Part shown: piece by piece, positions 211-34,705 of the stretch
Layout of the letters: each line of letters begins with the position of its first letter
Numbering within the stretch: position 1 is the first letter of the stretch
The notes under the pieces: generated by a model
What the model was told of the DNA's origin: nothing
Seen by the model: only the letters and a program-made list of their open reading frames with translations
Database searches by the model: none
Position numbers and translations under genes: made by a program
Source: an uncultured Clostridia bacterium
Lineage (GTDB): Bacteria > Bacillota > Clostridia > TANB77 > CAG-508
Direction of reading: 5' to 3'
Assembly: GCA_944389225.1 (NCBI GenBank)
Contig: CALXLP010000006.1
Coordinates: forward strand, 1-56,818
Length of the DNA stretch: 56,818 bases

Positions 211-417
211 TTTCATTAAGTCAGATACTTAATGAAAGATTTAAAGAAGCTACTTTTATGATTATTTATATATTTTCAGCCTATTTTTATCTTATCTTTT
301 TTCCCTTTTACATATTCATTTATTTTGATAAATATCTCTTAAAAACACTTGATTTTCTTTGCAATTATGATATAATTTTTTTAGTAAAAAATTCATTGAG
401 TATCTGACTCAATGAAT
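211..417. promoter_or_regulatory. Putative invertible promoter switch 1 (OFF orientation)
   Basis: Left site TTTCATTAAGT-CAGAT-ACTTAATGAAA (211-237); right site ATTCATTGAGT-ATCTG-ACTCAATGAAT (391-417); cores are reverse complements; + strand promoter TTGATT(349-354)-16-TGn-TATAAT(371-376) points away from pilin gene. Confidence 0.75.
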
Positions 418-440
418 TTATTTTTTTCTTTTTGTATCGT

Positions 441-1976
441 TTATTCACATGTTAATCTTCCATCATTTCCTATCTTCCATAATTTCCATCCTTGTTCTAT
501 TAATTTATTATTCTGTATATATGTATTTAAACTAGTTATTACATCTTGAATATCTTCCATTTCAAATACTGTGATTTCTGTTTCTGCTTCATTACTTCCT
601 GTTACCTTTTCTATATTATTTAACATAAAGGAATTGGTTAATTCATATTTTTCTTGATTTTGCCAATATATAAGATCCATTCCACATATGCCTCCTGCAT
701 AAGAGGTAGATTGTATTTCTCCTGTATTCACACAGTTTTGTATAATCAATGTTTGTCGATTTAATCCTGTTATTCCACCTGCTCCACCAAAATACCATAT
801 ACTTCTATTTCCATCATATATAATGGTTCCACCATTTATACAATTTTTTATTTGCGTACTTTCTGTATTGTTACTGCCAGTATTTCCACATAATCCTCCC
901 ACACCATAATTTCCACTTGCGCTAGATTTTATTGTTCCTTCATTTATACAATTTAACATTTCTCCTGTAAATTGGTCTCCACAAAATCCACCAACTGCTG
1001 ATGTTGATTCTATATTTCCCAAGTTCACACAATCCCTTATGTTTAATTGACCTGTACACCTTCCTATTATTCCTGCCGCTACACCACCATATATCTTAAC
1101 ATCACTCATAATATTTTCAATTTGACTCTTTCCTCCTTGAGAAATAATTCCAGCATTATTACTTTGACTATGTATTTCTCCTTTTACTGTAATATTCTTG
1201 AAATTAGCATTATTTAAAGATAAGATGAGACCTGCATTGTCCTGTTTAGAAATATATAAATTACTGATTACATTTTCATCACCATCAAAATTACCTGAAA
1301 ATTGTTGTATTGGTTTAAATCCTTCTCCACTTTGTAATTCTTTTATTAAACTATCTGTATTTCCATCTTGATTCACATCGCCATAGCCTTTTGTTTCACT
1401 ATTTGCATATGATAATTCTGATTTAAAGTTTAAATTAGTACATAACTTTATATATGCATTCGTATATTGACTATAGTTTTTAGACCATTCCATTAAATCT
1501 TCTATACACCAAATCTCATATGGTTTTTCTTCACTTCCATCTAATGTGTTTCCATCTTTTCCAACAGTAATATCTCCTGGATATTTGTCTTCTATGATTT
1601 CAAAAGCTCCTTCTACATTTCCATCTTTATCTACTGTGTAATATCTGTTACTTTCATGAAATACAACTTCAAATTCATCCCCAGCATCTGATACTTCCGT
1701 TTTTTCTTCTCCTGTTTCCTTATCCAGTTGTTCTTGTAATTCACTTTCTTCGATATTTCCATATTTATTATTTCCCATTGCTTGTACAGTTGCTTTTTCT
1801 ATAATTTCTTTTTCATTTGCAATTACTGTTTCTTCTTTTGCTTGACCTGCATTTCCTATGATTCCATTATCTCCTGTAATAGCACTTATTGTGATTCCTG
1901 CTAGAATTAATAGTACAATAATTGTGATAACTAATGCTAATAGTGTAATTCCTTGTTCTTTCTTTATCTTTTGCAT
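441..1976 (-). CDS. Type IV pilin-like protein with large C-terminal GLUG-like/beta-helix adhesin domain
   Basis: Prepilin-like KKEQG|ITLLALVITIIVLLILAG (no Glu5); PYEIxCIEDL motif, FSGNFDG, repeated 'NCxNxGxI...GGIxG' units. Confidence 0.85.
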   Translation of the reverse strand: MQKIKKEQGITLLALVITIIVLLILAGITISAITGDNGIIGNAGQAKEETVIANEKEIIEKATVQAMGNNKYGNIEESELQEQLDKETGEEKTEVSDAGDEFEVVFHESNRYYTVDKDGNVEGAFEIIEDKYPGDITVGKDGNTLDGSEEKPYEIWCIEDLMEWSKNYSQYTNAYIKLCTNLNFKSELSYANSETKGYGDVNQDGNTDSLIKELQSGEGFKPIQQFSGNFDGDENVISNLYISKQDNAGLILSLNNANFKNITVKGEIHSQSNNAGIISQGGKSQIENIMSDVKIYGGVAAGIIGRCTGQLNIRDCVNLGNIESTSAVGGFCGDQFTGEMLNCINEGTIKSSASGNYGVGGLCGNTGSNNTESTQIKNCINGGTIIYDGNRSIWYFGGAGGITGLNRQTLIIQNCVNTGEIQSTSYAGGICGMDLIYWQNQEKYELTNSFMLNNIEKVTGSNEAETEITVFEMEDIQDVITSLNTYIQNNKLIEQGWKLWKIGNDGRLTCE

Positions 1977-1997
1977 TTTATCTTCTCCCTTCTATAC

Positions 1998-2202
1998 TTT
2001 CTTTTAGTTAAGTACTCTAAGAAATATAGAAAGTTGGATTTTATGCATTATTTAGCCTTTTTACTGTCTTTGTTCTTTTTTATTTTCTATTTTCCAATTA
2101 ATAAATTTTGTCATTTTATTTTTCATTTTTTGTTGATATCTATTATATTTATTGGTATAATCAAGGTACAAAAAAAGTTCTAGAGTACTTAACTCTAGGA
2201 CT
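1998..2202. promoter_or_regulatory. Putative invertible promoter switch 2 (OFF orientation)
   Basis: Left TTTCTTTTAGT-TAAGT-ACTCTAAGAAA (1998-2024); right AGTTCTAGAGT-ACTTA-ACTCTAGGACT (2176-2202) flanked by A- and T-tracts; promoter TTGATA(2133-2138)-17-TGn-TATAAT(2156-2161) on + strand. Confidence 0.75.
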
Positions 2203-2220
2203 TTTTTATTTGTTTCTTAG

Positions 2221-2640
2221 TTAAAATATCTTTGTAAATTGTGTTCCTATCCAAATCCAATAAATTCCTAATCCCACTAATGTTGCCAATACACTCATTA
2301 TTATATATACTTTTGTGCTGATTTTTCCTTTTCGTTTCATATATATATTAATCGGTAGTAATATTAACAAATATACAATTAAAAGAAACATTCCTATCAT
2401 TGCATTTAAACTTTCTTCACTTTCTGGTACATAATATGCACTTCCCTTAGGTTGATTTGAAAAGAACATATAAAATAATATAAAAAATATGGTATCCATA
2501 AATCCCATAAAACCATTAAATATAACAGACAATGTTGATATGATATATTTTTTTGGCTTTTCTTTAAATTTTATCAATCCAATTATTACACAAATCAATA
2601 TATAAATAATTAATCCTGCTAATATTTTTAATAATACCAT
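2221..2640 (-). CDS. Hypothetical membrane protein (about 4 TM helices)
   Basis: 139-aa ORF with four hydrophobic stretches; AGGAG RBS. Confidence 0.7.
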   Translation of the reverse strand: MVLLKILAGLIIYILICVIIGLIKFKEKPKKYIISTLSVIFNGFMGFMDTIFFILFYMFFSNQPKGSAYYVPESEESLNAMIGMFLLIVYLLILLPINIYMKRKGKISTKVYIIMSVLATLVGLGIYWIWIGTQFTKIF

Positions 2641-2771
2641 TTCTTTTTCTCCTAAGTTTTTTCTTATTTTATCATAAAAGCAAAAATTACTCTATACCTT
2701 TTCGATATAAAGTAATTTTTCTATTAGAATCATCAAAATTATTAAATTCTCAAATAGTATTCATATATAGA

Positions 2772-3542
2772 TTATACACCAACAGTTGAGAAACCATTAT
2801 CTACATGAATAATTTCTCCAGTAATAGCACTTGACATATCACTAAATAAAAATGCTGTAGCATTTCCAACTTGATTGATAGTAACATTTTTATGTAATGG
2901 TGCTCTTTCTTCAACAATATCTAATATTGAACCAAAGTCTTTGATTCCTTTAGCTGATAATGTTTTGATTGGTCCTGCTGAAATTCCATTAATTCTATAT
3001 CCATCTTTTCCTAAATCTCTTGCTAAATATCTAATGCTTGCTTCTAATGCTGCTTTAGCAACTCCCATTACATTGTATCCTTCAATTGCTTTTTCTGATC
3101 CATAATATGTATATGCAACAATGCTTGCTCCTTCATTTAACATTTCTTTTTCTCTTGCCATTCTAACAATAGCAACTAATGAATAAGCACTTACATCTTG
3201 TGCATGTGCATAGCCATCTCTTGATGTTAAGATAAAATCATTTCTTAAATCTTCTGTGTTAGCATGTGCAATAGCATGTAATAATCCATCGATTTTTCCA
3301 TGATCTTTTTTAATTTCTTCTAAGCATTTATCTATATCTTCGTCTTTACTTACATCATTACATACATAAACACTTGCTCTTGGCATATCTTTTACTAAAT
3401 CTTTTACTTTATCTACACTATCTGCTGAACAAGTACAAATAACTTCTGCTCCTTGTTCATAAGCTGATTGTGTTGCTCCCCATGCAATACTCCATTTGTT
3501 TCTTACTCCCATAATTACTACTTTTTTACCTTCTAATAACAT
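2772..3542 (-). CDS. fabI: Enoyl-ACP reductase FabI
   Basis: GVRNKWSIAWG, YNVMGVAKAALE, SAGPIKTL motifs. Confidence 0.93.
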   Translation of the reverse strand: MLLEGKKVVIMGVRNKWSIAWGATQSAYEQGAEVICTCSADSVDKVKDLVKDMPRASVYVCNDVSKDEDIDKCLEEIKKDHGKIDGLLHAIAHANTEDLRNDFILTSRDGYAHAQDVSAYSLVAIVRMAREKEMLNEGASIVAYTYYGSEKAIEGYNVMGVAKAALEASIRYLARDLGKDGYRINGISAGPIKTLSAKGIKDFGSILDIVEERAPLHKNVTINQVGNATAFLFSDMSSAITGEIIHVDNGFSTVGV

Positions 3543-3663
3543 TTTAAATTCCTCCTAATTTATATTTTTATTGTATAGAAAAATCAGCTTTTCTATGTTT
3601 ATCTTATATAAGTACAAGCTTTTTTCATATACAACAAGATTAATCTTTTTTATATGTTATATT

Positions 3664-4455
3664 TTAGCACATTGTTCTAAATTTTTCATATCTGTTTTCT
3701 ACTAATTCTTTTTTAGATAATGTGTTTAATTCTTTTAAACTTTTTTTAATGTATGATTTTAATTCTTTTAGAACCATTTCTATATCTTCTTGTGCACCAC
3801 CTTCTGGCTCTTTTATAATTTTGTCAATGATTCCAAAATCTTTTAAATCTTTAGCAGTAGACTTCATATCTTCTGCTGCTTCTTTTGCTTTACTTGAATC
3901 TTTATATAAGATACTAGCAAATCCTTCTGGTGATAAGATGGAATATACTGCATTTTCTAACATAGCAATTCTATCTCCCACAGCGATTGCCAATGCACCA
4001 CCACTAGAACCTTCTCCAATAACAATACAAATGATTGGTACTTCTAGTTTTGACATCTCAAATAGATTTCTAGCAATTGCTTCACCTTGACCTCTTTCTT
4101 CTGCTCCCATTCCAGGATATGCACCAGGTGTATCAATAAAGGTGATAATTGGTCTATTGAATTTCTCTGCTTGTTTCATTAATCGTAATGCTTTTCTATA
4201 TCCTTCTGGATTTGGCATTCCAAAATTTCTTTCCATATTTTCTTTTGCTTTTTTTCCTTTTTGTTCTCCTATTACGGTGACTGGCATACCATCAAATGTT
4301 GCAATTCCTCCAACAATTGCTTTATCATCTCCGAAATTTCTGTCACCATGTAATTCCATAAAATCATCAAATAGTCCATTGATATAATCTAATGCTTTTG
4401 GTCTATCCATTTTTCTTGCTAACATTACTCTATCCCATGCTGTTATTTTTGCCAT
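3664..4455 (-). CDS. accA: Acetyl-CoA carboxylase carboxyltransferase alpha
   Basis: [35 protein letters not shown]. Confidence 0.95.
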
Positions 4456-4471
4456 GTTTCTTCCTCCTTTT

Positions 4472-5317
4472 TTATTTGTGTAGTCTGATTAATTTTGCAA
4501 TTGTTGATTTCATATCTTTTCTTTCTACTATTTTATCAATAAATCCATGTTCTAATAAAAATTCTGAACTTTGGAATCCTTCTGGTAATTTTTGATTAAT
4601 GGTCTGTTCTATAACCCTTGGTCCTGCAAATCCAATTAAGGCATGTGGTTCTGCTAAAATGATATCTCCTAAGCTTGCAAAACTTGCTGTTACACCACCT
4701 GTTGTTGGATCTGTTAAGACAGATATATATAATTGTCCTGCTTTATCTAATTTGGTAAGTGCACTTGATGTTTTCGCCATTTGCATTAAAGATATCATAC
4801 CTTCTTGCATTCTAGCACCACCTGATACACAGAATATAATTAATGGCAATTTCTTTTTAGCTGCTGTTTCAATTGCAAGTGTAATTCTTTCTCCTACTGC
4901 TGATCCCATACTTCCCATTAAAAAGTTTCCATCCATAACAGCCAAAACTGCTTTTTCTCCTTCTATTTCACATGTACCACATTTTACAGCTTCTTCTATT
5001 TTTGTTTTTTCTTTTAACATTTCTACTTTTTTCATATATCCTTTAAAATTCAATGGATCTTTTGTATGAATATCTCCACCAATTTCTTTAAAGGTTCCTT
5101 CATCTGCAATTTGTTTAATTCTTCTTCTTGATGATAATCTAAAATGTTTGCCACAGTTTGGACACACACTCAAATTTTGGTGTAAATCGTCTTTATAGAT
5201 AATTTCTTTACATTTATCACATTTTACCCATTTTCCAATCATCATATCTGAAGCTTTTTCATTCTTGACTCTCTTTTCTTCCTTTTCGTTTACCTTTTTT
5301 ACTTTGTCTATTACCAA
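4472..5317 (-). CDS. accD: Acetyl-CoA carboxylase carboxyltransferase beta
   Basis: Zn finger CDKC...[35 protein letters not shown]. Confidence 0.95.
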
Positions 5318-5465
5318 GGTATTTCCCTCCTTTTATATCTTTGTTATTATATATGTATTTTGAATTTATTTCAACTAGGATAAGTAGTCAATTTTTTGTT
5401 AAAAGAGAATAAAATCAATAGATGAAATAAGAAATTAGCATTATAATTGCTAATTTCTTTTTCTA

Positions 5466-6809
5466 TTACATATTAAATTCTTTTTTTATAAAAGATGTGT
5501 CATAATTGTTTGTTTTAAAGTTTTCATTTTTTAGTATTTTCAATAAAAAGTCTATATTGGTTGTAATTCCTTCTACAACAAATTCTGCCACTGCACTTTT
5601 CATTTTTGCGATAGATTCTTCTCTATTTTTTCCATGAACAATTAATTTTGCAAGCATAGAATCATATGTAGGTGGAACTGTATATCCACTATATATAGCA
5701 GTATCTACTCTTACACCATTTCCTCCTGGAATATGTAATCCTGTTATCGTTCCTGGACATGGCATAAAGTTTTTATCTGGATTTTCTGCATTAATTCTTA
5801 CTTCCATAGAATGTCCATTAAATTTAATATCTTCTTGTTTATATGTTAATTCTTCTCCACTTGCAATTTTGATTTGTTCTTTTATGATATCTACACCTGT
5901 TACCATTTCTGTTACAGGGTGTTCTACTTGTATTCTTGTATTCATTTCCATGAAATAGAAATCTTTATTTTTGTCAACTAAAAATTCAATGGTTCCTGCA
6001 TTAGAATAACCAATTTCTTTTACTGCCTTTACTGCTACTTCTCCCATTTTCTTTCTAGTTTCTTCATCTAGTATACCACTTGGTGTTTCTTCTAATACTT
6101 TTTGATTTCTTCTTTGTACTGAGCAATCTCTTTCTCCTAAATGGATACAGTTTCCGTGCTCATCTGCTAATATTTGAATTTCCACATGTCTTGGATTTTC
6201 TACAAATTTTTCTAAATAAAGGCTATCATCATTAAAAGATACTTTTGCTTCTTGTTTAACAATATCATATTCTTTTTCTAATTCTTCTTTAGAAAAGGCA
6301 ACTCTAATGCCTCTTCCTCCACCACCTGCTGATGCTTTTAACATAACAGGATATTTAATTTGTTCTGCTAAGTTGACTGCTTGTTCTTTTGAATAGATTA
6401 ATCCATCTGATCCAGGAACAACTGGAACTCCTGCTCTTTTCATCGTTTCTTTTGCTCTTGATTTATTTCCCAACAATTCGATTAGTTTATAGTCTGGTCC
6501 AATAAATTTGATTCCTGTTTCTTGACAAATTTTTGCAAAATTTGGATTTTCTGATAAGAATCCAAATCCTGGGTGAATACTATCTGCACCTGTTAAGCAT
6601 GCTGCTTCTAATATGGCTTTTACATTTAAATAACTTTTATTAGATGGTGCTGGTCCTACACAAATGGCTTCATCTGCTAATTGTACATGTAAGGCATTTT
6701 TATCTACTTCTGAATAAATGGCAACTGTTCTAATTCCCATTTCTCTACATGCTCTGATAATTCTAACTGCAATTTCTCCTCTATTGGCAATTAATACTTT
6801 TTTTAACAT
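5466..6809 (-). CDS. accC: Biotin carboxylase
   Basis: KVLIANRGEIA, HPGFGFLSEN, GGGGRG, EMNTRIQVEH. Confidence 0.96.
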   Translation of the reverse strand: MLKKVLIANRGEIAVRIIRACREMGIRTVAIYSEVDKNALHVQLADEAICVGPAPSNKSYLNVKAILEAACLTGADSIHPGFGFLSENPNFAKICQETGIKFIGPDYKLIELLGNKSRAKETMKRAGVPVVPGSDGLIYSKEQAVNLAEQIKYPVMLKASAGGGGRGIRVAFSKEELEKEYDIVKQEAKVSFNDDSLYLEKFVENPRHVEIQILADEHGNCIHLGERDCSVQRRNQKVLEETPSGILDEETRKKMGEVAVKAVKEIGYSNAGTIEFLVDKNKDFYFMEMNTRIQVEHPVTEMVTGVDIIKEQIKIASGEELTYKQEDIKFNGHSMEVRINAENPDKNFMPCPGTITGLHIPGGNGVRVDTAIYSGYTVPPTYDSMLAKLIVHGKNREESIAKMKSAVAEFVVEGITTNIDFLLKILKNENFKTNNYDTSFIKKEFNM

Positions 6810-6968
6810 GAAAATTCCTCCTATGAAAGATAATTTATTTTTATATTTTCTATATTCTCTTAAAAAAAGACAGCTTACATACTGTCTTTTATACCTTATA
6901 TATTATATATTTATTTTTTATTTTTTTCAAGCTAGGATAGGTGGTCAGTAATTATCGATTACTTTCCT

Positions 6969-8051
6969 TTATTTCCAGTTTTCTGGAATTTCACTATAAT
7001 TTGTCAAATTCTCACATCCTGTATAACATGCATTTCCACTAATACCACTTCTTTCCCATAAAGGTATGGCATTTCCAGTCAAAGATGTACAGTTATAAAA
7101 TGCATTGTCTGCATTTTTAATATTAGGACAATTATCAAATAAATCAGATGGAATTCGTGTTAATGATGTACAATTATAAAACATAGCCCTAATATTTGTT
7201 AAATTACCAAAGCTATTTTCTTTTGGAGAAACAATTTCTGTTAAATTGGTACAATTAGAAAAATTAACATTAATCATTTTATTTTCTCCCCAATCTATTA
7301 TTTTTTGTAACGCTGGTGAATTAACTATTATTTGTGTAGCATATATCTTTATATTAAATATTTTATTTTTTTCTTCATATTTATGCATTACTGGTATAGG
7401 AGCCCCTATAACTGCTACAGATATATTATCATTGAAACTAGCTATTTTTTGTGATTTTCCAATTTCAGTCCCTTCTAATTTGCTATATGTTCCATCTCCC
7501 CAATCTATTATTCCATCCATAGAAATCGCTAATAAAACTGTTCCTTTATCTCCCACATTCACATCAATCTTAAAACCTTTTTCTACCTTTTCTCTTTCTT
7601 GTTCTGTTAAATCTGCCACCTCATAAGTAAAATTTTTCATATATTCTTCTTCAGTTTTAATCTCTAAATTTCCTGTTTCATAATTTGATGTAACATAATA
7701 TATATTCCCTGTATCTGAAAATGTTATCATATAGCTGTTATCTACTTTTTGAACAATTGTTTCTCCTTTACCAGCTACACTATCTAATTCTGTTTGTAAC
7801 CCTTGATAATCTTCTCCTACTGTTTCTGGTTCATAATATACTATTCCTAAAGCTGTTAAGGCTGTTTTTATCTGTTCCTCTTCTGTTGCCACAACATTAT
7901 CTTCTTTAGCATTTTGCGCTCTTGTTAATATTCCATTATTACCTGTTAATGTTGCAATTGTTACACCTGCCAATATTAATAATACAATAATTGTAATAAC
8001 TAAAGCTATTAGTGTAATTCCTTTGTTTTTTCTTGATTCTTTTGTTTTCAT
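6969..8051 (-). CDS. Type IV pilin-like protein with PKD-like (IDWGDG) and BspA/DUF285-like LRR C-terminus
   Basis: KNKG|ITLIALVITIIVLLILAGVTI; IDWGDG; repeats 'FYNCTSLT', ends IPENWK. Confidence 0.85.
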   Translation of the reverse strand: MKTKESRKNKGITLIALVITIIVLLILAGVTIATLTGNNGILTRAQNAKEDNVVATEEEQIKTALTALGIVYYEPETVGEDYQGLQTELDSVAGKGETIVQKVDNSYMITFSDTGNIYYVTSNYETGNLEIKTEEEYMKNFTYEVADLTEQEREKVEKGFKIDVNVGDKGTVLLAISMDGIIDWGDGTYSKLEGTEIGKSQKIASFNDNISVAVIGAPIPVMHKYEEKNKIFNIKIYATQIIVNSPALQKIIDWGENKMINVNFSNCTNLTEIVSPKENSFGNLTNIRAMFYNCTSLTRIPSDLFDNCPNIKNADNAFYNCTSLTGNAIPLWERSGISGNACYTGCENLTNYSEIPENWK

Positions 8052-8075
8052 CTCTTCTTTTTCCTCCCTTTTAAC

Positions 8076-8282
8076 TTTCTATTATTTAGTTACTCTAAGA
8101 AATTTACATGTATATTAAAACCTGCTTATAAGTTATTTTTGTTAACATTCTTACTGTTAATTTCTTTCATATTCTCAAAAAATTTTTTATAAAAAAATAA
8201 ATTAAAATCCTATTGACAGCCCTGCAATTTATTGTTATCATAATTGTATGAAATCTTTCTTAGAGTAACTAACTCTAAGATT
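8076..8282. promoter_or_regulatory. Putative invertible promoter switch 3 (OFF orientation)
   Basis: Left TTTCTATTATT-TAGTT-ACTCTAAGAAA (8076-8102); right TTTCTTAGAGT-AACTA-ACTCTAAGATT (8256-8282)+T-tract; perfect 17-bp IR 8086-8102/8256-8272; promoter TTGACA(8213-8218)-17-TGn-TATCAT(8236-8241) on + strand. Confidence 0.78.
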
Positions 8283-8532
8283 TTTTATTAATATTATGTT
8301 TCTTACAAAAGTTCTATTTTTTTATTTATAAGTAAAGCAAAAACCATTTTTTCAACGCAATACTTCCATTTAAGTTTCCTATAAATACAGAGTAAATTAC
8401 TTATTTTTCAGATAGTTTTGATTTACAATTTAAATAAAATTAGCTTATTTTTATATACTGACATTAAATGTCAATACAACAATTACTTCTTTTGTGTCAT
8501 AATTACTTTAAACATTAGTTTAGGGTGATGTT

Positions 8533-8739
8533 ATGATAAAAGAAAAAAGAAAGGCAAAAAAATATACACAAGAAAAAATGTCTGAAATACTAGGAATTAG
8601 TTTGAGACAATATATACGAATTGATAACGAAGAAGATTTACCCAGAAGAGATGTTTTAAAAAATCTGATTTTAGAATTAGAATTAACAGATGAAGAATTA
8701 GGTGAATACATAAGAATTATGGCAAATAAAATAGCTTAA
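8533..8739 (+). CDS. XRE/Cro-family helix-turn-helix protein
   Basis: TQEKMSEILGISLRQYIRID HTH pattern; upstream palindrome TGACAT-TAA-ATGTCA (8459-8473); hairpin 8728-8779 downstream. Confidence 0.85.
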   Translation: MIKEKRKAKKYTQEKMSEILGISLRQYIRIDNEEDLPRRDVLKNLILELELTDEELGEYIRIMANKIA

Positions 8740-8844
8740 GAATATTAAATTATATAATAAAATATTCTTAAGCTATTTTTTATTATATGATGAAAACTAG
8801 TTTTTTATCTTCGCTTACACATAAGTTTCTTCATATACATTATC

Positions 8845-9531
8845 TTATTTTGTTGATATATGTATATTTTCAATTTCTGCATTTAATTCTCTAGAAATAA
8901 TATTTTGTATTTGTGCTACTTCTTCTTGTTGTAATTGTTCTGCTCCAATAATCACACTAATGCTATCTCCATTTACAAAAATAATATTATTAGTAAATCC
9001 TTTTGTACTAATCAAATTCTCACATATCATGATACTATTTTTCGTATCATTAATTTTTTTAATTTCTTCTGTGGCACTTTGTTTTTGCGTTTCTAAGCTA
9101 TTACTACTATTTAATACCTTTTCATAACTTTCTATCATCTGTGAATACATAGTGTCTCTTTCTAGTTTTGATTTTGTAAAATATTCATCTGATGTTACTG
9201 TTGCACTTGTTTGTGCTACTGTATTAGCTGTACTATTTTCTGTTGTGTTATTGTCTTGTGTCATATTTGTATCAGCCATTGTATTTGTTGTATCTGCTGT
9301 TACATTTTCTTCTACTTCATTTTCACTAACTGCTTCACTATTTACTAATGTAGCATCTCCAATATCAGCAATTTGCATATCATCATTTGCTTCCATTTCC
9401 ATAGCTGTCTGTGTAGATACTTGCTCTGCTGTATTGGTAGTATAATTCAAATATCCAGCAGTCACTAACATTAAGGCAATAACATAAATAATTACTTGAT
9501 TTTTCTTCAATAAGCCTTTCATTATTTTCAT
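8845..9531 (-). CDS. spoIIIAH: Stage III sporulation protein AH
   Basis: N-terminal TM 'LMLVTAGYLNY', YFTKSKLER, ENLISTKGF; last gene of spoIIIA cluster. Confidence 0.88.
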   Translation of the reverse strand: MKIMKGLLKKNQVIIYVIALMLVTAGYLNYTTNTAEQVSTQTAMEMEANDDMQIADIGDATLVNSEAVSENEVEENVTADTTNTMADTNMTQDNNTTENSTANTVAQTSATVTSDEYFTKSKLERDTMYSQMIESYEKVLNSSNSLETQKQSATEEIKKINDTKNSIMICENLISTKGFTNNIIFVNGDSISVIIGAEQLQQEEVAQIQNIISRELNAEIENIHISTK

Positions 9532-9610: not shown

Positions 9611-9663
9611 AGTCCTGTCCCTTTTGGACGAAAAATGTCCATTTTGACACGTCCCTAATGTTC
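9611..9663 (-). repeat. REP-like dispersed repeat copy A (overlaps spoIIIAG stop)
   Basis: agtcctgtcccttttggacgaaaaatgtccattttgacacgtccctaatgttc; near-identical to 14575-14621. Confidence 0.85.
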
Positions 9664-10916: not shown

Positions 10917-10924
10917 AACTTCCC

Positions 10925-14574: not shown

Positions 14575-14627
14575 AGTCCTGTCCCTTTTGGACAAAAAAT
14601 GTCCATTTTGACACGTCCCTAACGTTT
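14575..14627 (-). repeat. REP-like dispersed repeat copy B (overlaps stop of 14619..16568)
   Basis: agtcctgtcccttttggacaaaaaatgtccattttgacacgtccctaacgttt. Confidence 0.85.
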
Positions 14628-25288: not shown

Positions 25289-25444
25289 ATATTTCTCCCT
25301 TCTTCTGTATATTTTATCATAGTTGTATCATATTTTTATCAATTTGTATAGCCTATATTTTTTCTTATTCAACAAAAAAATGTACATAAAATTAACAAAA
25401 TTTTATGTACATTTTTTACCCCTTTTATTTTATATTATTTTTCT

Positions 25445-26245
25445 TTATTGTTTAGGTCTATATGTCATAATATTACTTACAGCTTCTGGTCTAACTGGTG
25501 ACATTAAAATTTTTCCTGTTCCTCTGTATACATTAACAAATCCTTCTCCTGCAACAGCTGAACCTAATAAACTTCTTGTAGATTTCTCTACTGTAAAATC
25601 TAATGAATCAGACCATGCAATTGCCATATTTCCATCAATTTTTATTTGGTCATTTTGTAATTCTATTTCAATTAATTCTTCTCTTGGAACTGGACTTTCT
25701 AGAACTGCAATTCCTTGTCCTGATAATTTTAAATTAAATAATCCTTCCCCACCTAATACAGCTGAAGATAAATTACTTCTCATAACGACATTTGTATTCA
25801 AACTTGCTTCACAAGCTAGGAATAATCCATCTTCTAAAACCATACTACCGTTCCAAGCACCAACATCTTCTAGTAAAATATAGTTGTATGTTGGTTCTAA
25901 TGCCAATAATCCTGTACCATGATATTTAGGTTTTACTGTTGATTCACTTGTTACACTTCCCTTTATTGCTTTTCCTAAGAAATCTCCAACGCCTTTTACA
26001 TTTGTTTTTGACTCTATATTTCCAGCCATCCATTGCATTGCTCCGGCACTTGTCACATATTCATCTCCTTGTAATTGAATCACAACTTGTCTTCTTCTAA
26101 CATTCATCTTTGCTGCAAAATATTCTGACATTGCTGTCAATTTATTAACACTGACATCTCTTTGAAATTCAACAACTGAAATATTTCCCTTTCTTTCTAT
26201 AATTTTTACATCATCATTATCAAATAGGTTCTTAACTGAAATCAT
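25445..26245 (-). CDS. AIM24-family protein
   Basis: GAMQWM, GGEGLF, IDGNMAIAW, GEGFVNVYRGTG. Confidence 0.82.
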   Translation of the reverse strand: MISVKNLFDNDDVKIIERKGNISVVEFQRDVSVNKLTAMSEYFAAKMNVRRRQVVIQLQGDEYVTSAGAMQWMAGNIESKTNVKGVGDFLGKAIKGSVTSESTVKPKYHGTGLLALEPTYNYILLEDVGAWNGSMVLEDGLFLACEASLNTNVVMRSNLSSAVLGGEGLFNLKLSGQGIAVLESPVPREELIEIELQNDQIKIDGNMAIAWSDSLDFTVEKSTRSLLGSAVAGEGFVNVYRGTGKILMSPVRPEAVSNIMTYRPKQ

Positions 26246-26401
26246 AAAAATACCTCCTTCTATTTTTTCAAACTCATTATATACAAAACTTCTATATTTT
26301 TACAATATATTATAAAATTTTTTTATATTTTTTTATCAATTTGTTTTATTTCTATTTTCTTGTGGTATAATGATAAATGAATTTTAACAAAAGAAAGGGA
26401 G

Positions 26402-29026
26402 ATGATTGTACTCATGTCAAATACTAAGGAAGAAGTAAACGTATCAAAACTCTATGGCCAAGAGTGTTTACTATCCAAAAAAGATTTTATCAAGAAATAC
26501 AAGATTAAAGAAGAAACCGGTCTAAGTTCTCAAGAAGCTGAATACAAATTAAAACAATTAGGCCCCAATATCATTAGACAAGCCAAACCAAAAAGATGGT
26601 ATCATTACTTTTTTGAAAGTTTGTTTACACCTTTTAATTTAATTTTATTAGGAATTACTCTACTTTTGTGCTATACAGATGTTATCTTACCAGAAACACC
26701 TAGTTATGCCAATATTATTGTTATTGCTATTTTAGTTGCTGCTAGTACTTTATTAGACTTTGTTGAAATATATCGTTCTAATAAAGCAGCCGGTAAATTA
26801 AAAGAATTGGTTGCAACTACTTGTCATGTTTTAAGAGATGGTAAAGAATTGCAAATTCCTATAAAAGATGTAACTCTTGGTGATATCGTTATTCTTACTG
26901 CTGGTAGTATGATTCCAGCTGATTTAAGAATTATAGAAGCAACTGATTTATATGTTGGACAATCTTCTTTAACTGGAGAATCTGAGGCCGTAAAAAAATT
27001 AGTTGAAACAGAAGTAAATCCTGAAGATTTAGATAGTATCGCTGATTTAGACACTATTTGTTTTATGGGAACCACTGTCATTTCTGGTAGTGCAAAAGGA
27101 GTTGTTATTAAAACAGCCGATTCTACTTATTTTGGAAAAATTGCACATACAATAACCTCTGGTAAACCAAAAACAGCTTTCCAAAAAGGAATCGAAAGTA
27201 TTAGTAAATTATTAATCCGTTTTATGCTAATTATCATTCCTGTTGTCTTTATCCTTAATTTCTCAAAGCATAGTATTGTAACAGCATTTACTTTTGCAGT
27301 AGCGATTTCTATTGCTATTACACCTTTACTACTTCCTGTTATTTTATCTTCTTGTTTATCAAAAGGTGCTGTCAAAATGTCTAAGAAAAAGACAATTGTA
27401 AAAAAACTAGATGCTATTCAAAATTTTGGTGCTATGAATATTTTATGTACAGATAAAACAGGAACATTAACAGAAGATAAGATTGTTCTAGAAAAATATT
27501 TAGATATAAAAGGTGATGAAGATCTTGGTGTTTTAAAATATGCTTATTTAAATGCAAGTCTTCAAACTGGTTTAAGAAGTAATATTGATGAAGCTGTTAT
27601 TAATCGTGGTAAAGAATATAATATGCCAGAATTAACTAGTAAGTATATAAAAATAGATGAAATACCTTTTGATTTTTCTCGTAGACGTTTATCTATCGCC
27701 GTAAAAAATGAAGAAGGTAAAGATGAATTAATTACAAAAGGTGCCGTAGAAGAAATTTTAAATATTTCTACTTCTGTAGAATATAGAGGTGTGGTTTCCC
27801 CTCTAACTAAAGAAATTAAAGAAAATATACAAAGAATTAGTAAAAACTTAAATAAAGAAGGTTTAAGAGTCATTGCTGTTTGTAAAAAATATAGTAATGA
27901 ACCTGGTTATGATTTTGAAGTAAAAGATGAAAAAAATATGATATTAATTGGCTTTATTGGTTTCTTAGATCCACCTAAGGAAAGTGCCAAAGAAGCTGTT
28001 GCAAGAATGAATAAAGCTGGCATTCGTGTTATTGTTTTAACGGGTGATAATGCAGAAGTTACAAAATGTATCTGTGATAAAGTAAATATCAAGTCTAAAC
28101 ATATCATCTTAGGAAGTGAATTAGATAAGTTATCTGATATAGCTGTTCAGAGATTAATTAAGAAAAATAACATTTTTGCCAAATTATCTCCTATCCAAAA
28201 AGCAAGAATTGTAAGGCTTTTGAAAGAGCAAGGAAATGTTGTAGGATATATGGGAGATGGAATTAATGATAGTCCTTCCCTAACCAATTCAGATGTTGGT
28301 ATTTCAGTAGATACTGCTGTTGACATTGCAAAAGAATCAGCTGATATTATCTTACTAGAAAAAGATTTAAATGTTTTATTAGATGGTGTAACAGAAGGAA
28401 GAAAAACATTTGCAAACTTAATGAAATATATTAAGATGGCAACAAGCTTTAACTTTGGAGAAGTGTTATCTGTTATTGTAGCAAGTATTGCTTTACCATT
28501 TTTACCAGAAACACCTATCCAATTATTAGTAGAAGGTTTATTATATGATTTTGGACAAATGACACTTCCTTTTGATGATGTAGATGCAGAAATCGTTCGT
28601 AAACCTAAAAAATTAGATATCAAGAGTTTAAAACATTTTATGCTATTTATGGGACCAGTTAGTTCTGTTTTTGACTTAATTGTATTTGCTTCTTTATGGT
28701 TTATCTTTGGCGTTAGAGAAGCCGCGCTTTTCCAAACAATTTGGTTCTCTTATAGTATCGTTTCAAACTTAATTGGTATGCATATTATTAGAACTGCAAA
28801 AATACCTTTTATACAAAGTAATGCAAATAAAATGGTATATTTCTCTTCTATCTTGTTAATTTTAGTAGGACTTATCGTACCATTTACACCTTTAGGAAGT
28901 TTCATTGGATTAGTCCCAATGGCTGCCGAAGATATTGTGTTAATCTTTGTTGTAACCTTCCTATACTGTATTTTAGCTATGTTTGCGAAAAAGGTTTACA
29001 TCAAAAAATATGGTGAATGGATTTAA
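26402..29026 (+). CDS. mgtA: Mg2+-transporting P-type ATPase
   Basis: TGES, DKTGTLT, DEIPFDF, DPPK, TGDN, GDGIND; start may be 26414. Confidence 0.9.
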   Translation: MIVLMSNTKEEVNVSKLYGQECLLSKKDFIKKYKIKEETGLSSQEAEYKLKQLGPNIIRQAKPKRWYHYFFESLFTPFNLILLGITLLLCYTDVILPETPSYANIIVIAILVAASTLLDFVEIYRSNKAAGKLKELVATTCHVLRDGKELQIPIKDVTLGDIVILTAGSMIPADLRIIEATDLYVGQSSLTGESEAVKKLVETEVNPEDLDSIADLDTICFMGTTVISGSAKGVVIKTADSTYFGKIAHTITSGKPKTAFQKGIESISKLLIRFMLIIIPVVFILNFSKHSIVTAFTFAVAISIAITPLLLPVILSSCLSKGAVKMSKKKTIVKKLDAIQNFGAMNILCTDKTGTLTEDKIVLEKYLDIKGDEDLGVLKYAYLNASLQTGLRSNIDEAVINRGKEYNMPELTSKYIKIDEIPFDFSRRRLSIAVKNEEGKDELITKGAVEEILNISTSVEYRGVVSPLTKEIKENIQRISKNLNKEGLRVIAVCKKYSNEPGYDFEVKDEKNMILIGFIGFLDPPKESAKEAVARMNKAGIRVIVLTGDNAEVTKCICDKVNIKSKHIILGSELDKLSDIAVQRLIKKNNIFAKLSPIQKARIVRLLKEQGNVVGYMGDGINDSPSLTNSDVGISVDTAVDIAKESADIILLEKDLNVLLDGVTEGRKTFANLMKYIKMATSFNFGEVLSVIVASIALPFLPETPIQLLVEGLLYDFGQMTLPFDDVDAEIVRKPKKLDIKSLKHFMLFMGPVSSVFDLIVFASLWFIFGVREAALFQTIWFSYSIVSNLIGMHIIRTAKIPFIQSNANKMVYFSSILLILVGLIVPFTPLGSFIGLVPMAAEDIVLIFVVTFLYCILAMFAKKVYIKKYGEWI

Positions 29027-29037
29027 TGAAAATGTAT

Positions 29038-29112
29038 CAAAATGGACAGAGCTTATTTCAAGTTCTGTCCATTTTTACTATTTTTGTCCATTTTGACACG
29101 TCACCAACGTCC
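29038..29112. repeat. Degenerate REP-like copy / bidirectional hairpin between mgtA and yfcE
   Basis: aaaatggacaga...tctgtccatttt hairpin followed by tgtccattttgacacgtc shared with copies A/B. Confidence 0.6.
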
Positions 29113-29120
29113 ATTTATTT

Positions 29121-29663
29121 TTACTCTTTATATCTATATTCTTCTATCACATTTCCATCAACATCTTTTATGACAATATCTTTTTCTTCTATCATTGCAT
29201 AACTATGTGGTGTATTTTCTTTTGGTAATGAGATAGAACCTGGATTTACAAATAATTGATTATCATATTTTTTAATAAAACATGTATGGAAATGTCCGTA
29301 AAACATAATATCAAAATCTTCTGGTGGCAAATTATCTATATTGTATTTATGTCCATGTGTAAAAAACATATTTTTTCCATTAATTTTTTCTAATATATGT
29401 TCTTTTATATCAAATTCAGAAACCATTTGATCTACTTCTGCATCACAGTTTCCTCTTACAACTTCTAGTTTATCTTTTACACTATTTAATACTTTTGTTA
29501 CTTTCATTGGATCATATCCATCTGTTAATGGATTTCTAGGTCCATGATAATATAAATCTCCTAATACAACTATTTTTTCTGGTTTTTCTTTTTTAATAAT
29601 TTCTTTTAATTTGTCAGCATATACACCTGACCCATGAATATCTGATACAACCAATACTCTCAT
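29121..29663 (-). CDS. yfcE: Metallophosphoesterase YfcE
   Basis: SDIHG, LGDLYYHGPRN, VRGNCD, THGH, GHFH, NPGS. Confidence 0.9.
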   Translation of the reverse strand: MRVLVVSDIHGSGVYADKLKEIIKKEKPEKIVVLGDLYYHGPRNPLTDGYDPMKVTKVLNSVKDKLEVVRGNCDAEVDQMVSEFDIKEHILEKINGKNMFFTHGHKYNIDNLPPEDFDIMFYGHFHTCFIKKYDNQLFVNPGSISLPKENTPHSYAMIEEKDIVIKDVDGNVIEEYRYKE

Positions 29664-29791
29664 AAAACTCATTCCTTTCTTCCTTAGCTAGTTTTTGTAT
29701 TTTTTAATTATGATATATTGTAAGATATATTATTATAAAATTCAACCCCTATATAGAAAAAAATGGCATCATTTTTTGATACCACTTCTTT

Positions 29792-30325
29792 CTATTCCAT
29801 CAACTTTTTGATATCTTCATCTTGTTTTAACTTGTTTGATATAAAATGATATGCTTGCTTATTTTGTTTCACAGCAATTTCCGCCAACTCTTTATCATCA
29901 ATCAATCGTTTACTAGCATATTTGATAATAATCCCCTTATTTTCTACTGCTGCTTTTACTACTTCTTTATCATCCCTTAATTCTTCTGATGCATAATATA
30001 ATGCTTGCCCATAATGTTTACAACATTCTAACATAATCTCCTTGTCTCCTGCTAATTCCTCTGATGCATAACAAATGGTCCAAGGTGCTGTTTTAGTAGC
30101 TAATTGTAACACTTCTTTATCTCCTTTTAACCTTGTACTTGCAAATTCTAAGGCTTCTCCATCTTGTTTTAAAGCTTCCATAACCACTTCTTTGTCATCT
30201 TGTAATTCTTCTGATGCCAATTCTAGGTTTTTTCCACTTTCTTTTACTGCTTGTAGGATTATTTCTTTGTTATTACTATTTTTTTGTATTTCTTCTATTT
30301 CCATTTTATCAGTCCCTTTCTTCAA
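29792..30325 (-). CDS. DUF4116-like repeat protein
   Basis: Repeats of 'ALxYASEELxDDKEVVxxAV'. Confidence 0.8.
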   Translation of the reverse strand: MKKGTDKMEIEEIQKNSNNKEIILQAVKESGKNLELASEELQDDKEVVMEALKQDGEALEFASTRLKGDKEVLQLATKTAPWTICYASEELAGDKEIMLECCKHYGQALYYASEELRDDKEVVKAAVENKGIIIKYASKRLIDDKELAEIAVKQNKQAYHFISNKLKQDEDIKKLME

Positions 30326-30695
30326 TCATATACATTATATCACATTTCATTACTAATTCTATATAGATAAATCAATTATTTTAGAATATCTTATCATTAA
30401 AAGATTGTCCAAGAAAAAAAGCTTACATCTGAAATTGCGTGGAGCCTTAAACATGGCTCTTAATGCCTTTGAGAAAAAGAACTTCCGTTACTCATTTGTA
30501 TTTTTGTATTGGCATTTAAAACAGCGTTTTTTAGGGTATTTTTATTAGCTGATGTTGCATCCCCAAATACATACGAAATGAAAATCGCACGAGATTTAAT
30601 CGACTTCTGGTATTCATCGTATAAAAAATCTTCAGCACCATGAGTAATTTTTACTCTAATGGGCTTCAGTATTCGTACTGGAGCCCATTTAAATA

Positions 30696-31493
30696 TTATA
30701 TATACCTTTCTATATCATAAAAATTATTTTCTTCTGTTAACACAATGTCAAAGTTCTTTTTATACACTTCCAAATTTTCTGTAACATTCTTATTTAAAAA
30801 CCCTATTTTTAAAGATTTATTTTCTGGATATTCTCCCATCATATGAATATCTTCAACTAAATCCCCAATCACAATTCTATATTCCTTTTCCTTTATTCTT
30901 TCTTCTACTTTTAAATCTCCTAATTTATCTATATTTTTATTTAATGTATGAATAATATTATCAGAAAATTTTATCATATCTCCATTTTCGTCAAACTTTA
31001 TAAAATTACCAATAATTGTTATGTTGTTATAATAACAATTGTTTTCTTTTAAAAATTGTTCTATTACATTTCCAATACCTGCTGAAAAGATAATTACTGG
31101 TATTTGATTTTCATATAATTTAGAAAGAAAATCTTTTGCTCCTTCTCTTAATTTTAGATAACTATTACTAACGCAATTTTTTAGTTTTTTCCTTGTAAGA
31201 TGATATGTATAATATAAATTCATAGAATTTGTATACCATTCTAACATATATTTTTCTTTTTCTTTCATATCTATCGTATAATCTAATTCTATTGGTCCAT
31301 ATTTTTCATAAAGCTTATTTAAATCATTAGCTATTTCCTGCCCCATTGCCTTTTTATTGGCACTAGTTGCCCAAGAGTCTTCACTATCACTTGATGTAAT
31401 TGTCTTATCATAATCCATGAAAACACATATATTATCTTTATTCATTTTTTCTTTTAGTTCTCTTATTTTGGCTTCATTATTTAGATATATCAT
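30696..31493 (-). CDS. Pyrimidine 5'-nucleotidase (UMPH-1/cN-III-like HAD)
   Basis: DYDKTIT, EKEKYMLEWY, LREG, FSAGIG, IHTLNK, IGDLVEDIHM, LKIGFLN. Confidence 0.82.
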   Translation of the reverse strand: MIYLNNEAKIRELKEKMNKDNICVFMDYDKTITSSDSEDSWATSANKKAMGQEIANDLNKLYEKYGPIELDYTIDMKEKEKYMLEWYTNSMNLYYTYHLTRKKLKNCVSNSYLKLREGAKDFLSKLYENQIPVIIFSAGIGNVIEQFLKENNCYYNNITIIGNFIKFDENGDMIKFSDNIIHTLNKNIDKLGDLKVEERIKEKEYRIVIGDLVEDIHMMGEYPENKSLKIGFLNKNVTENLEVYKKNFDIVLTEENNFYDIERYI

Positions 31494-31519
31494 AAATTTT
31501 CTCCTTATAAATAATACTA

Positions 31520-32434
31520 TTATAATAAATTAATCTGTTCTTCTGTTAAATTTGTTATTTTTTTTATTAATTCTATATCTAATCCTTCTTCTTTCATTTT
31601 TTTTGCTATTTTCTTTTTTTCTTCCGTCTTTCCTTCAGCTTTTCCTTCTTCCATTCCCTTTCTTCTTGCCTCATTTATTTCTGTATTATATGTTAATCTA
31701 CTTCTTTCTCTGATTTCATATAACTCTCTTTCATATTCATCTGCACTCATTTGTGTTAATTGTTCTACTGCTTCTTTAATTTCTTCATTTTCATTTTTAT
31801 ATTCTTCCATCATTTTTTCATCGCCCCCAATTACATATAACCATTTTTCTAGCAAATCTGCCACTTTTGGTTTCTTTTTCTTAAACTTTGGTAATTCAAT
31901 AATATAGTATTTTACCATGTCTGTTAAATATTCTTCCTCTTTTTCATATCCTATATTAACATATCTAATTTCTTCTGTTTTCTCATACTTTAACATGGCT
32001 AAACTTAAATATGCATTTCGTTTTACAACATTATCATTTATAATACATATAACAATTGTATCTTTTGCTTTTTTATATTCTTCTGATACTTTTATTTCTC
32101 CTGCTATTAATTTTGCATTATATACCACTAATCTTCTTTCTATGGCCGTTGTATTCCCCACTTGTAATTTAATATCTATCATTGTGTTATTATTTATTTC
32201 TGCTTTGATATCTAAGATACTTAATTTCTCCTCTATTGCTTCTTTAGGTATTTCTGGATTTTTTATTTCTATCTTTTGTATATCAATTTTTAATATTGCC
32301 TCTAATAAACTTTTTAGAATTTTTTCATTGCCACCTTTTCCAAATATCCTTTTAAATACATAATCATTTGATAATGGTAACATATTTACTTCTTTTATTT
32401 TATTTAAGTTGCTCATGTTTTTTTCTCCTTTCAT
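31520..32434 (-). CDS. Rpn/YhgA-like PD-(D/E)XK nuclease family protein
   Basis: NDYVFKRIFG, LDIKA, IELPKF, C-terminal EEGKAEG...IAKKMK...IKKITNL. Confidence 0.85.
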   Translation of the reverse strand: MKGEKNMSNLNKIKEVNMLPLSNDYVFKRIFGKGGNEKILKSLLEAILKIDIQKIEIKNPEIPKEAIEEKLSILDIKAEINNNTMIDIKLQVGNTTAIERRLVVYNAKLIAGEIKVSEEYKKAKDTIVICIINDNVVKRNAYLSLAMLKYEKTEEIRYVNIGYEKEEEYLTDMVKYYIIELPKFKKKKPKVADLLEKWLYVIGGDEKMMEEYKNENEEIKEAVEQLTQMSADEYERELYEIRERSRLTYNTEINEARRKGMEEGKAEGKTEEKKKIAKKMKEEGLDIELIKKITNLTEEQINLL

Positions 32435-32917
32435 TCTATCAAATTAATTTCTTTTATTCAATAAATCTATTTGAATTTATTAAATGCATTTAGAGCTTTT
32501 TGTTCATATTTTATTTATTTCTTTTTATACATGAAAAATTTATCTTTATCTTTTCTTCTCATAAACTCTATTTGTATTTATAGAAAATTTGGTTTTTTAT
32601 AACATCATAATTAAGCTAAATGTCAAATTATTGATATACAAAATATTAAAACTTCTATAATGGATTTTTAAATGAAATATAAATCTAGATATAAAAATAA
32701 TTTAAAATTAATTTTTAACACAGAATACATAAATGAACTTTTTAAAATGTTTGAATAAAATATTTTATTTTTATAAATATACTCGTTATTTAAGAGCAAA
32801 CTATAAAATTTAACTTGAATATAAATATATTTTAATAAAGGCTTACAAATAAAAAATCTCTAATTGCATTTCCATTATTTTACAATACAATTAGAGATTT
32901 TTCAATATTTTATTTTC

Positions 32918-34447
32918 TTATTTTTCAAATGTTGGTAATCCATTAGCATCTAATTTCCAATTATATAGTGTTACTCCTTTATCTTTATAATCATTTTTAT
33001 GTGCTTCTACATATGCATTTAATTTATCTATTATGCTTTTATCTCCTTTAGAAAATGCTATAGAATTTTCATTTGCTACCACGTTCTCATTTATTATAGT
33101 ATCTAAATAATAACAACTATCTAAATTTACGGTTGCTCCTCCCCATACACAATAGAAATTATAACTACTTCCACTTGGTTTTGAGATTGTTCCTAAGCTG
33201 CATGTATTTATAATATTTCTAGTTCCAGTATTATATGCTCCTCCAATTATTCCACTTGTTCTGCTCTTTCCTATTATTTCCCCTAAATTATAACAATTTA
33301 CTATAATCGTATTTCCATTAATATCATCAAAATTAATAATTCCTCCAACACTATCTCCTTGAAGATTTGCTAAATTACAACAATTTATGATTTCTACATT
33401 TCCCCATACTGAGCCGACAATTCCTCCTAAAGAACTACTACTGTTTATATTTCCAGAAATACATAAATTATACAATTTACTTCCAGAAGCTACTCCTGTT
33501 ATTCCACCGCCTCCTTGACACTCATAATATACATTTACTAAACTTAAATTTTTTAAAGTAGCCGTATATATTGTGTTAAATAGTCCTCCTCCATTTTTTG
33601 TATTCTCATATAAATTCTGAATTTCATGATTTTGTCCATCAAATATTCCTGCAAACATTAAATTTCCTGAACCTGTATTTTCACTAATGGGTACAAATCC
33701 AACTCCATTTCTATCTGTTAATAATTCTCTTAAATTTTGTGTACTATTTTCGTCTATCACATATGCTTCTTCCTCTTCATCATAACGCCATCCAATAGAT
33801 AAATCCGCGTATGATACTGTTGAATTAAAGTTTAAGTTCTTTGTTAGTATAAAATTTTTACCTGAAAATGTATTTCTTACCGCTTCTTTTATTTCTCCAT
33901 TTTCTATATAATTCCCTTTTCCTCTTGATATATTAGACAGTACCACTAAATCTTCTATACATGAAATTTCATATGGTTTTTCTTCACTTCCATCCAATGT
34001 TTCTCCATTTTCTCCTATCGTAAAATCTCCTGGATTTTCATCTTTATTAATCGTATATTCTCCTTCTACATTTCCATCTTTGTCAACTATATAATATCGA
34101 TTACTATCAATAAATATAACCTCAATTCCATCTCCTATATCTGTTGCTTCTGTTTTTCCTTCTCCTGTTTCTTTATCTAACTCACTTTGTAATTCATTTT
34201 CTTCTATATTTCCATATTTGTTATTTCCCATTGCTTGTACAGTTGCTTTCTCTACAATTTCTTTTTCATTGGCTATTTCTGTTTCTTCTTTTGCTCTACC
34301 TGCATTTCCAATAATTCCATTATCCCCTGTTATCGCACTTATGGTAATTCCTGCTAAGATTAATAACACGATAATAGTGATAACTAATGCCAATAATGTA
34401 ATTCCTTCTTGATTTTTTATTTTACTTTTTTGTATATGTTTTTTCAT
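32918..34447 (-). CDS. Type IV pilin-like protein with GLUG-like/beta-helix adhesin domain
   Basis: NQEG|ITLLALVITIIVLLILAG; first ~170 aa closely match 441..1976; divergent C-terminus. Confidence 0.85.
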   Translation of the reverse strand: MKKHIQKSKIKNQEGITLLALVITIIVLLILAGITISAITGDNGIIGNAGRAKEETEIANEKEIVEKATVQAMGNNKYGNIEENELQSELDKETGEGKTEATDIGDGIEVIFIDSNRYYIVDKDGNVEGEYTINKDENPGDFTIGENGETLDGSEEKPYEISCIEDLVVLSNISRGKGNYIENGEIKEAVRNTFSGKNFILTKNLNFNSTVSYADLSIGWRYDEEEEAYVIDENSTQNLRELLTDRNGVGFVPISENTGSGNLMFAGIFDGQNHEIQNLYENTKNGGGLFNTIYTATLKNLSLVNVYYECQGGGGITGVASGSKLYNLCISGNINSSSSLGGIVGSVWGNVEIINCCNLANLQGDSVGGIINFDDINGNTIIVNCYNLGEIIGKSRTSGIIGGAYNTGTRNIINTCSLGTISKPSGSSYNFYCVWGGATVNLDSCYYLDTIINENVVANENSIAFSKGDKSIIDKLNAYVEAHKNDYKDKGVTLYNWKLDANGLPTFEK

Positions 34448-34497
34448 TTTTTATACCTCTTTTCTACATTTTCTTTTGTTTTTAAACTATTTTTTAT

Positions 34498-34705
34498 TTT
34501 CTTTTAGTTTCTTACTCTAAGAAATTGATAATATCTTTCTAACTATTGTTATTGATAGATTTATAGGTATAAACTATAGTAAAAAAGTCTTTCATTTTTT
34601 ATAAAAATTTATCGTTAATTTAAAGAAAATTTTTATTGACATATCCTTACTTTATTGATATGATTTGTATACAAAAGGATTCTTAGAGTAAGAAACTCTA
34701 GGGAT
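34498..34705. promoter_or_regulatory. Putative invertible promoter switch 4 (OFF orientation)
   Basis: Left TTTCTTTTAGT-TTCTT-ACTCTAAGAAA (34498-34524); right ATTCTTAGAGT-AAGAA-ACTCTAGGGAT (34679-34705)+T-tract; perfect 18-bp IR 34506-34523/34680-34697; promoter TTGACA(34636-34641)-17-TGn-TATGAT(34659-34664). Confidence 0.78.

Follow-up and report, generated by a model that had tools for sequence, protein, structure and literature searches.

Putative invertible promoters before pilin-like genes in uncultured gut Clostridia, and a candidate tyrosine recombinase whose gene carries a variable T run

Invertible DNA segments can switch surface structures on and off. The Escherichia coli fimS element is a short invertible promoter that is flipped by the tyrosine recombinases FimB and FimE and controls a chaperone-usher pilus at a single locus. 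PMC11868660 and PMC5903667 both name this system. The loxP and dif sites consist of palindromic arms around an asymmetric core; pairs of such sites in inverted orientation invert the DNA between them, and the cores of the two partners must match. Multi-locus systems are described in PMC5903667: Mpi of Bacteroides fragilis, a serine recombinase acting as one master enzyme, inverts at least 13 scattered regions controlling surface structures, with seven polysaccharide loci among its named targets, and RecV of Clostridioides difficile is a trans-acting tyrosine recombinase with seven sites that are mostly unrelated inverted repeats. Here we describe a family of switches found in a stretch of 56,818 nucleotides (nt) from an uncultured Clostridia bacterium (contig CALXLP010000006.1 of assembly GCA_944389225.1; GTDB lineage TANB77, CAG-508). 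This stretch, hereafter the window, is contig C6 of genome G000 (1.72 Mb, 27.8% GC, 86.6% complete), and most of the sequencing runs containing at least half of the words of this genome were chicken gut metagenomes. Each switch stands upstream of a pilin-like gene, and we propose, with a probability of about 0.8, genome-wide promoter inversion of a repertoire of type IV pilin fusions by one tyrosine recombinase gated by a T run. That promoters invert at multiple loci of this genome is, taken alone, close to certain in our judgment.

The proposed system resembles Mpi in that a single master recombinase would serve many dispersed segments controlling the surface, but it differs in its candidate enzyme, a tyrosine recombinase (PF00589) with a variable T run in its gene, in its palindromic sites of arm, core and arm, and in having pilin fusions as targets. 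With RecV it shares a trans-acting tyrosine recombinase in a member of the Clostridia and several dispersed switches; compared by description, it differs in having about 21 loci with one arm consensus, one promoter layout and one gene family. Those homologues of the candidate that are immediately followed by a single switch and a single pilin gene have a layout similar to that of fimS, whereas the present system is multi-locus, controls type IV pilin-like fusions and would use an integrase of the phage/Tn type. As in loxP and dif, palindromic arms surround an asymmetric core and partner cores match; the differences are that the arms measure 11 base pairs (bp), that the 5-bp core (7 bp if the constant T and A on either side are counted) varies freely, so that one genome has many different cores, and that a site is at the same time a terminator-like hairpin. 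XerCD/dif further differs in its single chromosomal site, against 21 inverted pairs here, and the N-terminal part of the candidate falls below the cut-off of the XerD model.

Each site spans 27 bp (11-bp arm, 5-bp core, 11-bp arm), and the eight window sites named in the original prediction were all recovered exactly, by site matrix and core comparison. At locus 1, the gene-proximal site (positions 211-237, core CAGAT) and the distal site (391-417, core ATCTG) lie upstream of the 5' end of pilin-like gene 1 (1-191, minus strand), which is cut by the contig end and encodes an N-terminus with G followed by ITLLALVITIIILLILAG. Locus 2 (proximal site 1998-2024, core TAAGT; distal site 2176-2202, core ACTTA) precedes gene 2 (441-1976, minus strand), locus 3 (proximal 8076-8102, core TAGTT; distal 8256-8282, core AACTA) precedes gene 3 (6969-8051, minus strand), and locus 4 (proximal 34498-34524, core TTCTT; distal 34679-34705, core AAGAA) precedes gene 4 (32918-34447, minus strand). 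The cores are reverse-complementary within each pair, and the two sites are therefore inverted relative to each other, as had been claimed. The spans of 185, 183, 185 and 186 bp given with that claim hold when counted from core start to core end; the centre-to-centre distances are 180, 178, 180 and 181 bp.

All four interiors contain, on the plus strand and thus facing away from the gene, a promoter-like element (TTGAnn-16/17-TGnTAnnnT) that ends 14 nt before the distal site. These matches to the sigma-A extended -10 consensus lie at 349-376 (locus 1), 2133-2161 (locus 2), 8213-8241 (locus 3, TTGACA-17-TATCAT with TG) and 34636-34664 (locus 4, TTGACA-17-TATGAT with TG), and all are in the OFF orientation. 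The outward promoter-like elements were thus found as predicted, but the accompanying statement that no equivalent faces the gene had to be qualified at locus 2, where a weak match facing the gene scored 9 of 13 points and the outward match 12. Promoter-like matches alone occur at chance frequency in this AT-rich DNA (17 in window positions 1-2400, against 16.4 in shuffles); what stands out is their constant position, 12-16 nt away from a site at 20 of the 21 loci of the genome.

A matrix seeded solely on the eight window sites returned 40 matches scoring at least 16 in the whole genome, all of them at pilin-like loci and one being an overlap between contigs C90 and C18, compared with 1-2 matches in each of three block-shuffled genomes. 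Besides one half pair at a contig start, there were 21 complete inverted pairs with centre-to-centre distances of 162-194 bp, all upstream of pilin-like genes, so that the multi-locus family proposed for the window extends across the genome. Cores were reverse-complementary in 21/21 pairs (shuffled mean 1.1, maximum 6), with 20 different cores. Sites were present at 22 of the 28 genes with a pilin-like N-terminus; the short pilin of 142 amino acids (aa) that is encoded within the type IV pilus operon of contig C9 has none. Nineteen loci were OFF, one was ON (C1:78345) and one lacked a promoter (C5:56431). In this last case (C5:56431-56606), a full site pair precedes a pilin-like gene with a promoter at neither site, possibly a decayed or locked switch. 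C90 and C18 overlap by 77 nt at a switch, which might be taken for a trace of inversion in the assembly; as the overlap reaches 50 nt into the interior, this reading was rejected.

To follow the family beyond this genome, a species-representative collection was searched with the exact inner-arm pattern, the 5-bp core being outside the pattern. Ninety-eight of the 99 stretches found were in 14 Clostridia assemblies, and the other was a chance match in Hyphomicrobiales (L070), excluded from the pair set with its mismatched cores, as was one locus with a run of N (L024). Cores matched in 96 of the 98 analysable pairs from other genomes (shuffled mean 7.5, maximum 16). By orientation, 68 pairs were OFF and 6 ON, while 20 had no pilin motif but were close to an edge of the fetched DNA and 4 simply had none, some of these preceding other genes. 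The scan for ON copies suggested with the original prediction thus yielded 1/21 loci in G000 and 6/74 classifiable loci in relatives, three of the latter in genome G061. Moreover, L036 (OFF) and L077 (ON) are one locus, with a 163-nt interior that is 100% identical and flanks that are 100% and 97% identical, and they are flipped exactly at the sites, which is where the segment had been predicted to turn.

Contigs from 4 of 24 listed metagenomic runs could be placed on window positions 1-9000, a span that ends before locus 4, other contig joints in these runs being ignored for their short sides. Contig 9 of run X2 (1354 nt) follows the window from 1521 to 392 and then, on the opposite strand, from about 329 to 416, in a 95% identical allele whose piece limits we infer; it fits what locus 1 flipped ON would give.

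The exact 20-base pattern proved too narrow (2 of 61 relatives matched), and a degenerate pattern was run on 201 genomes of the genus, 77 of the family and 123 from four other families of the order. It matched 35/201 and, through variant arms, extended to further lineages and genera within the family (14/77), with 0/123 matched in the four other families. In 43 of 44 further pairs, which include a few repeats of earlier loci, the cores matched. Some switches precede genes without the standard pilin motif (L379 and L304 in G134, L059, L009 and L229), for example genes for short signal-peptide proteins or for minor-pilin-like N-termini, and the set of targets may be wider.

The distal site appears to have a second role. 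In the window, the distal sites fold as hairpins (z -4.6, -5.5, -3.7 and -6.6 at loci 1-4), followed at locus 1 by a T tract and terminator-like on both strands at locus 2; those of loci 3 and 4 are terminator-like as well. Across 92 loci, which are related and whose ON or OFF form was simulated where not observed, a T tract (at least 5 of 8) follows the site on the OFF side in 80/92 and on the ON side in 0/92, and the mean folding energy is -14.9 kcal/mol (OFF) against -5.8 (ON). In form, the distal site resembles an intrinsic terminator, one that would act on transcripts from the promoter in its OFF orientation.

These elements suggest how the switches might operate. A trans-acting recombinase of 310 aa would bind the palindromic arms and exchange strands in the asymmetric core, each exchange flipping a segment of 160-195 bp. 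In the OFF state, the promoter would point away from the gene and its transcript would enter the distal site and there form a hairpin with a U tract behind it. In the ON state, the promoter would lie 12-16 nt before the proximal site, where the outer arm is weaker and a U tract is absent, and would read into the ribosome-binding site and the pilin gene.

The candidate enzyme is encoded outside the window, just downstream of a switch-controlled pilin gene (G000:C18:1908-2841, 310 aa). Two of the seven PF00589 matches in the genome are the halves of this gene, split by a T10 run. Its in-frame homologue P0001 has the catalytic motifs GLRIGE (150), SSKT (193), HVLRH (259), LGH (283) and RYVH (294), of which the last three are in the +1 frame in G000. 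The best match among solved structures is 6en0 Int (E 2.6e-22), of the phage/Tn-integrase type, and the N-terminal 235 aa of the candidate reach 37 bits on the XerD model, against a cut-off of 330 that a separate XerD of the same genome passes. Upstream of the gene (C18:1835-1907) lies a conserved TTGATA-17-TGATAT element of the same type as the switch promoters.

A run of T9-T12 is located just before the catalytic C-terminus of the gene, keeping it in frame in 3 of 15 genomes and shifting it by +1 in 9 and by +2 in 3. The shifted C-terminal 83 codons (HxxRH, LGH and the catalytic Tyr) nevertheless have a ratio of nonsynonymous to synonymous polymorphism (pN/pS) of 0.06 over 66 pairs of 12 copies; the N-terminal value of 0.36 is unreliable because codon indels were left unaligned. 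T or A runs of at least 10 occur only five times in the 1.72-Mb genome. One metagenome contig, in frame with its T12 run, shares 99.8% identity with a genome that has T11 and is out of frame, and database proteins with the same residues 1-222 stop at 227, 235, 244, 310 or 311 aa, a +3 allele with an extra Phe being among them. As near-identical strains are in different frames and the C-terminus is conserved, the run varies in the DNA and the gene is not a pseudogene.

Run length is thus a plausible heritable lock on the invertase, an interpretation that we moderately favor. Length changes between T9 and T12 would put the enzyme in or out of frame, so that most lineages would be locked while in-frame cells reshuffle. 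We lean slightly towards a fuller, two-tier picture of lockable surface display, in which a homopolymer-switched master invertase would flip about 20 switches independently of one another and thereby choose variable-domain pilin fusions for one shared type IV pilus, the sites doubling as terminators and carrying locus-specific cores.

The run could instead be a rheostat, RNA-polymerase slippage or ribosomal frameshifting on T10-T11 yielding a little full-length enzyme from every allele and setting a low switching rate. Slippage is known on long T or A runs; out-of-frame alleles are in the majority (12/15) and yet the C-terminus is strongly conserved; ON loci are present in out-of-frame genomes; and the homologues of G077, G090b and G207 carry frameshifts in the corresponding region and have no long T run. 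However, alleles in all three frames exist among proteins identical over 222 residues, and the DNA run itself varies. We hold a rheostat in place of a lock to be possible but rather unlikely, and the two can coexist. The distant homologues in question (L322, G077:C53; L324, G090:C1; L325, G207:C37) are frameshifted at about residue 226-229, and G077 keeps 11 paired loci despite its frameshifted copy.

The original prediction, which found no recombinase in the window, had called for a co-occurring orphan tyrosine recombinase, and the candidate's family indeed tracks the sites. The invertase clade (100/100 support) was found in 15/15 genomes with the exact motif. Of the 201 genus genomes, 51 hold a family member at E<1e-50, including 19/19 of those with at least two paired loci. 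Next to 9 of 41 more distant homologues, a site pair starts 1-37 nt after the stop codon; in most cases a pilin-like gene comes next, and one pair is ON; by comparison, 1 of 58 other tyrosine-recombinase loci adjoins a site pair, and that pair is without the arm motif. The arm variants also track the invertase lineages. This linkage and co-occurrence make it highly probable that the candidate is the cognate enzyme of the switches. They also suggest that a local invertase-switch-pilin cassette may have given rise to the trans-acting multi-locus form. Genome G062 carries a split orphan copy of the family together with an intact copy beside its own switch (L224 and L149, G199/G062), and another, G024, has five copies (L232, L328-L331).

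A different enzyme might flip the switches, namely the XerD-like protein (C39), the XerC-like protein (C15) or one missing from the 86.6% complete assembly. G000 and most motif genomes do have both Xer-like genes, and the candidate of G000 borders the far end of a pilin gene and not a site; but the linkage to site pairs (9/41 against 1/58), the co-occurrence in 19/19 genomes and the arm variants following invertase lineages make this improbable. Phage-like integrases on C102, C42 and C33 were set aside, as they are not beside site pairs, and so was a serine recombinase on C3, the sole PF00239 match in G000, with no site pair nearby. Least credible of all is that nothing inverts and that the sites, mere terminators or operators for a repressor, multiplied when the 5' regions of pilin genes were duplicated: strong hairpins with T tracts mark the distal sites and about 92% of classifiable loci share one orientation, but this leaves unexplained the ON copies and why cores match within pairs and differ between loci, and is contradicted by the exactly flipped L036/L077 pair.

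Several observations weigh against inversion by a T-run-gated enzyme. Kinship among the genomes means that all cross-genome counts overstate independence. Both orientations within one sample were not seen among the contigs of the 4 runs placed on window 1-9000, and locus 3 was OFF in 4/4 of these runs. The ON locus on C1 of G000 is also ON in the sole orthologue found (L042), so that some loci may be fixed, and cores are not always locus-specific, TCAAT being shared by 6 of 8 loci in assembly CALXAE. Fewer than two pattern matches were found in 32 of the 51 genomes with a family member; these might have other arm sequences, lost targets or enzymes with other jobs. Regarding the T run, no in-frame allele of G000's own lineage was present among the 15 listed of 72 cluster members, and ON loci are not clearly more frequent where the gene is in frame, the three ON loci of G061 sitting in a +1 genome. 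Finally, G361, from another genus and with 21 matches, has an in-frame invertase with a short run and is mostly without T tracts.

The proteins presumably under control share a prepilin-like N-terminus (basic leader, G, hydrophobic helix) that is nearly identical to that of the short pilin of the C9 operon, although residue +5 is not Glu. Pfam N_methyl matched one paralogue only, below cut-off (E 0.0018), and none of the three window proteins. The genome encodes pilus machinery, with two PF00437 ATPases on C9, a PF01478 peptidase on C1 and PilC/PilM-like neighbors assigned by eye. The AlphaFold2 model of the gene 2 product (511 aa; mean predicted local distance difference test score, pLDDT, 90.5) has two N-terminal helices, a small alpha/beta domain and a GLUG-type beta-helix. 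Its fold matches (Z 26 to 3n6z, Z 25 to 7uvk) come from a listing filled by the beta-helix and speak for that part, not for the pilin-like N-terminal domain; GLUG matches were also obtained in the atlas. The likeness to IgA1-protease beta-helices concerns the fold only and implies no protease activity. Gene 4 (509 aa) is a paralogue of gene 2, with 37% identity over 364 aa past the N-terminus. Gene 3 (360 aa) gave an unusable single-sequence fold (pLDDT 41.7) but has weak C-terminal leucine-rich repeats (LRR) of the BspA type (LRR_5, E 6e-5, below the curated cut-off), which also occur in a paralogue on C24. The cargo domains are thus of the beta-helix/GLUG or LRR kind. As the original prediction has it, the cargo proteins might be incorporated into the pilus, perhaps at its tip, and act in adhesion.

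Elsewhere in the window, a nested palindrome of about 355 bp (41803-42158) lies between a Crp-like gene and a sugar epimerase gene. It has 72-nt arms that are 90% complementary, with inner arms of 30 nt, which are perfect, and of 36 nt, and resembles a miniature inverted-repeat transposable element or a repetitive extragenic palindrome. Matches to its terminal unit of roughly 50 nt number 34, among them window 9611-9661 and 14575-14625; they are spread over 22 contigs and often form inverted pairs.

Our literature search, which mostly covered papers outside subscription, found none on this site family, on invertible promoters of pilin repertoires in these Clostridia or on a homopolymer-switched invertase. 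The available portion of the main text of PMC11892184 does not mention pilin or pili, and its supplements list unpublished Firmicutes_A repeat motifs, of which groups 125 and 139 could overlap the arm motif. In the accessible text of PMC11680825, a paper on TANB77 pilins, 'invert', 'phase vari' and 'recombinase' have no match. The system would work like Mpi and RecV without being assigned to either; its site family appears to be new and its second tier is apparently undescribed, as we found no description of a global invertase that is phase-variable through a simple repeat.

As many 5-bp cores match only within pairs, the sites and their enzyme are a candidate toolkit for orthogonal multi-switch recombination with a built-in terminator. 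For the organisms themselves, the analysis points to phase variation on a large scale within one family of uncultured gut Clostridia and puts forward a probable enzyme-site pair. If true, the gating of a global invertase by repeat slippage would be a new way to time the surface diversification of a population.

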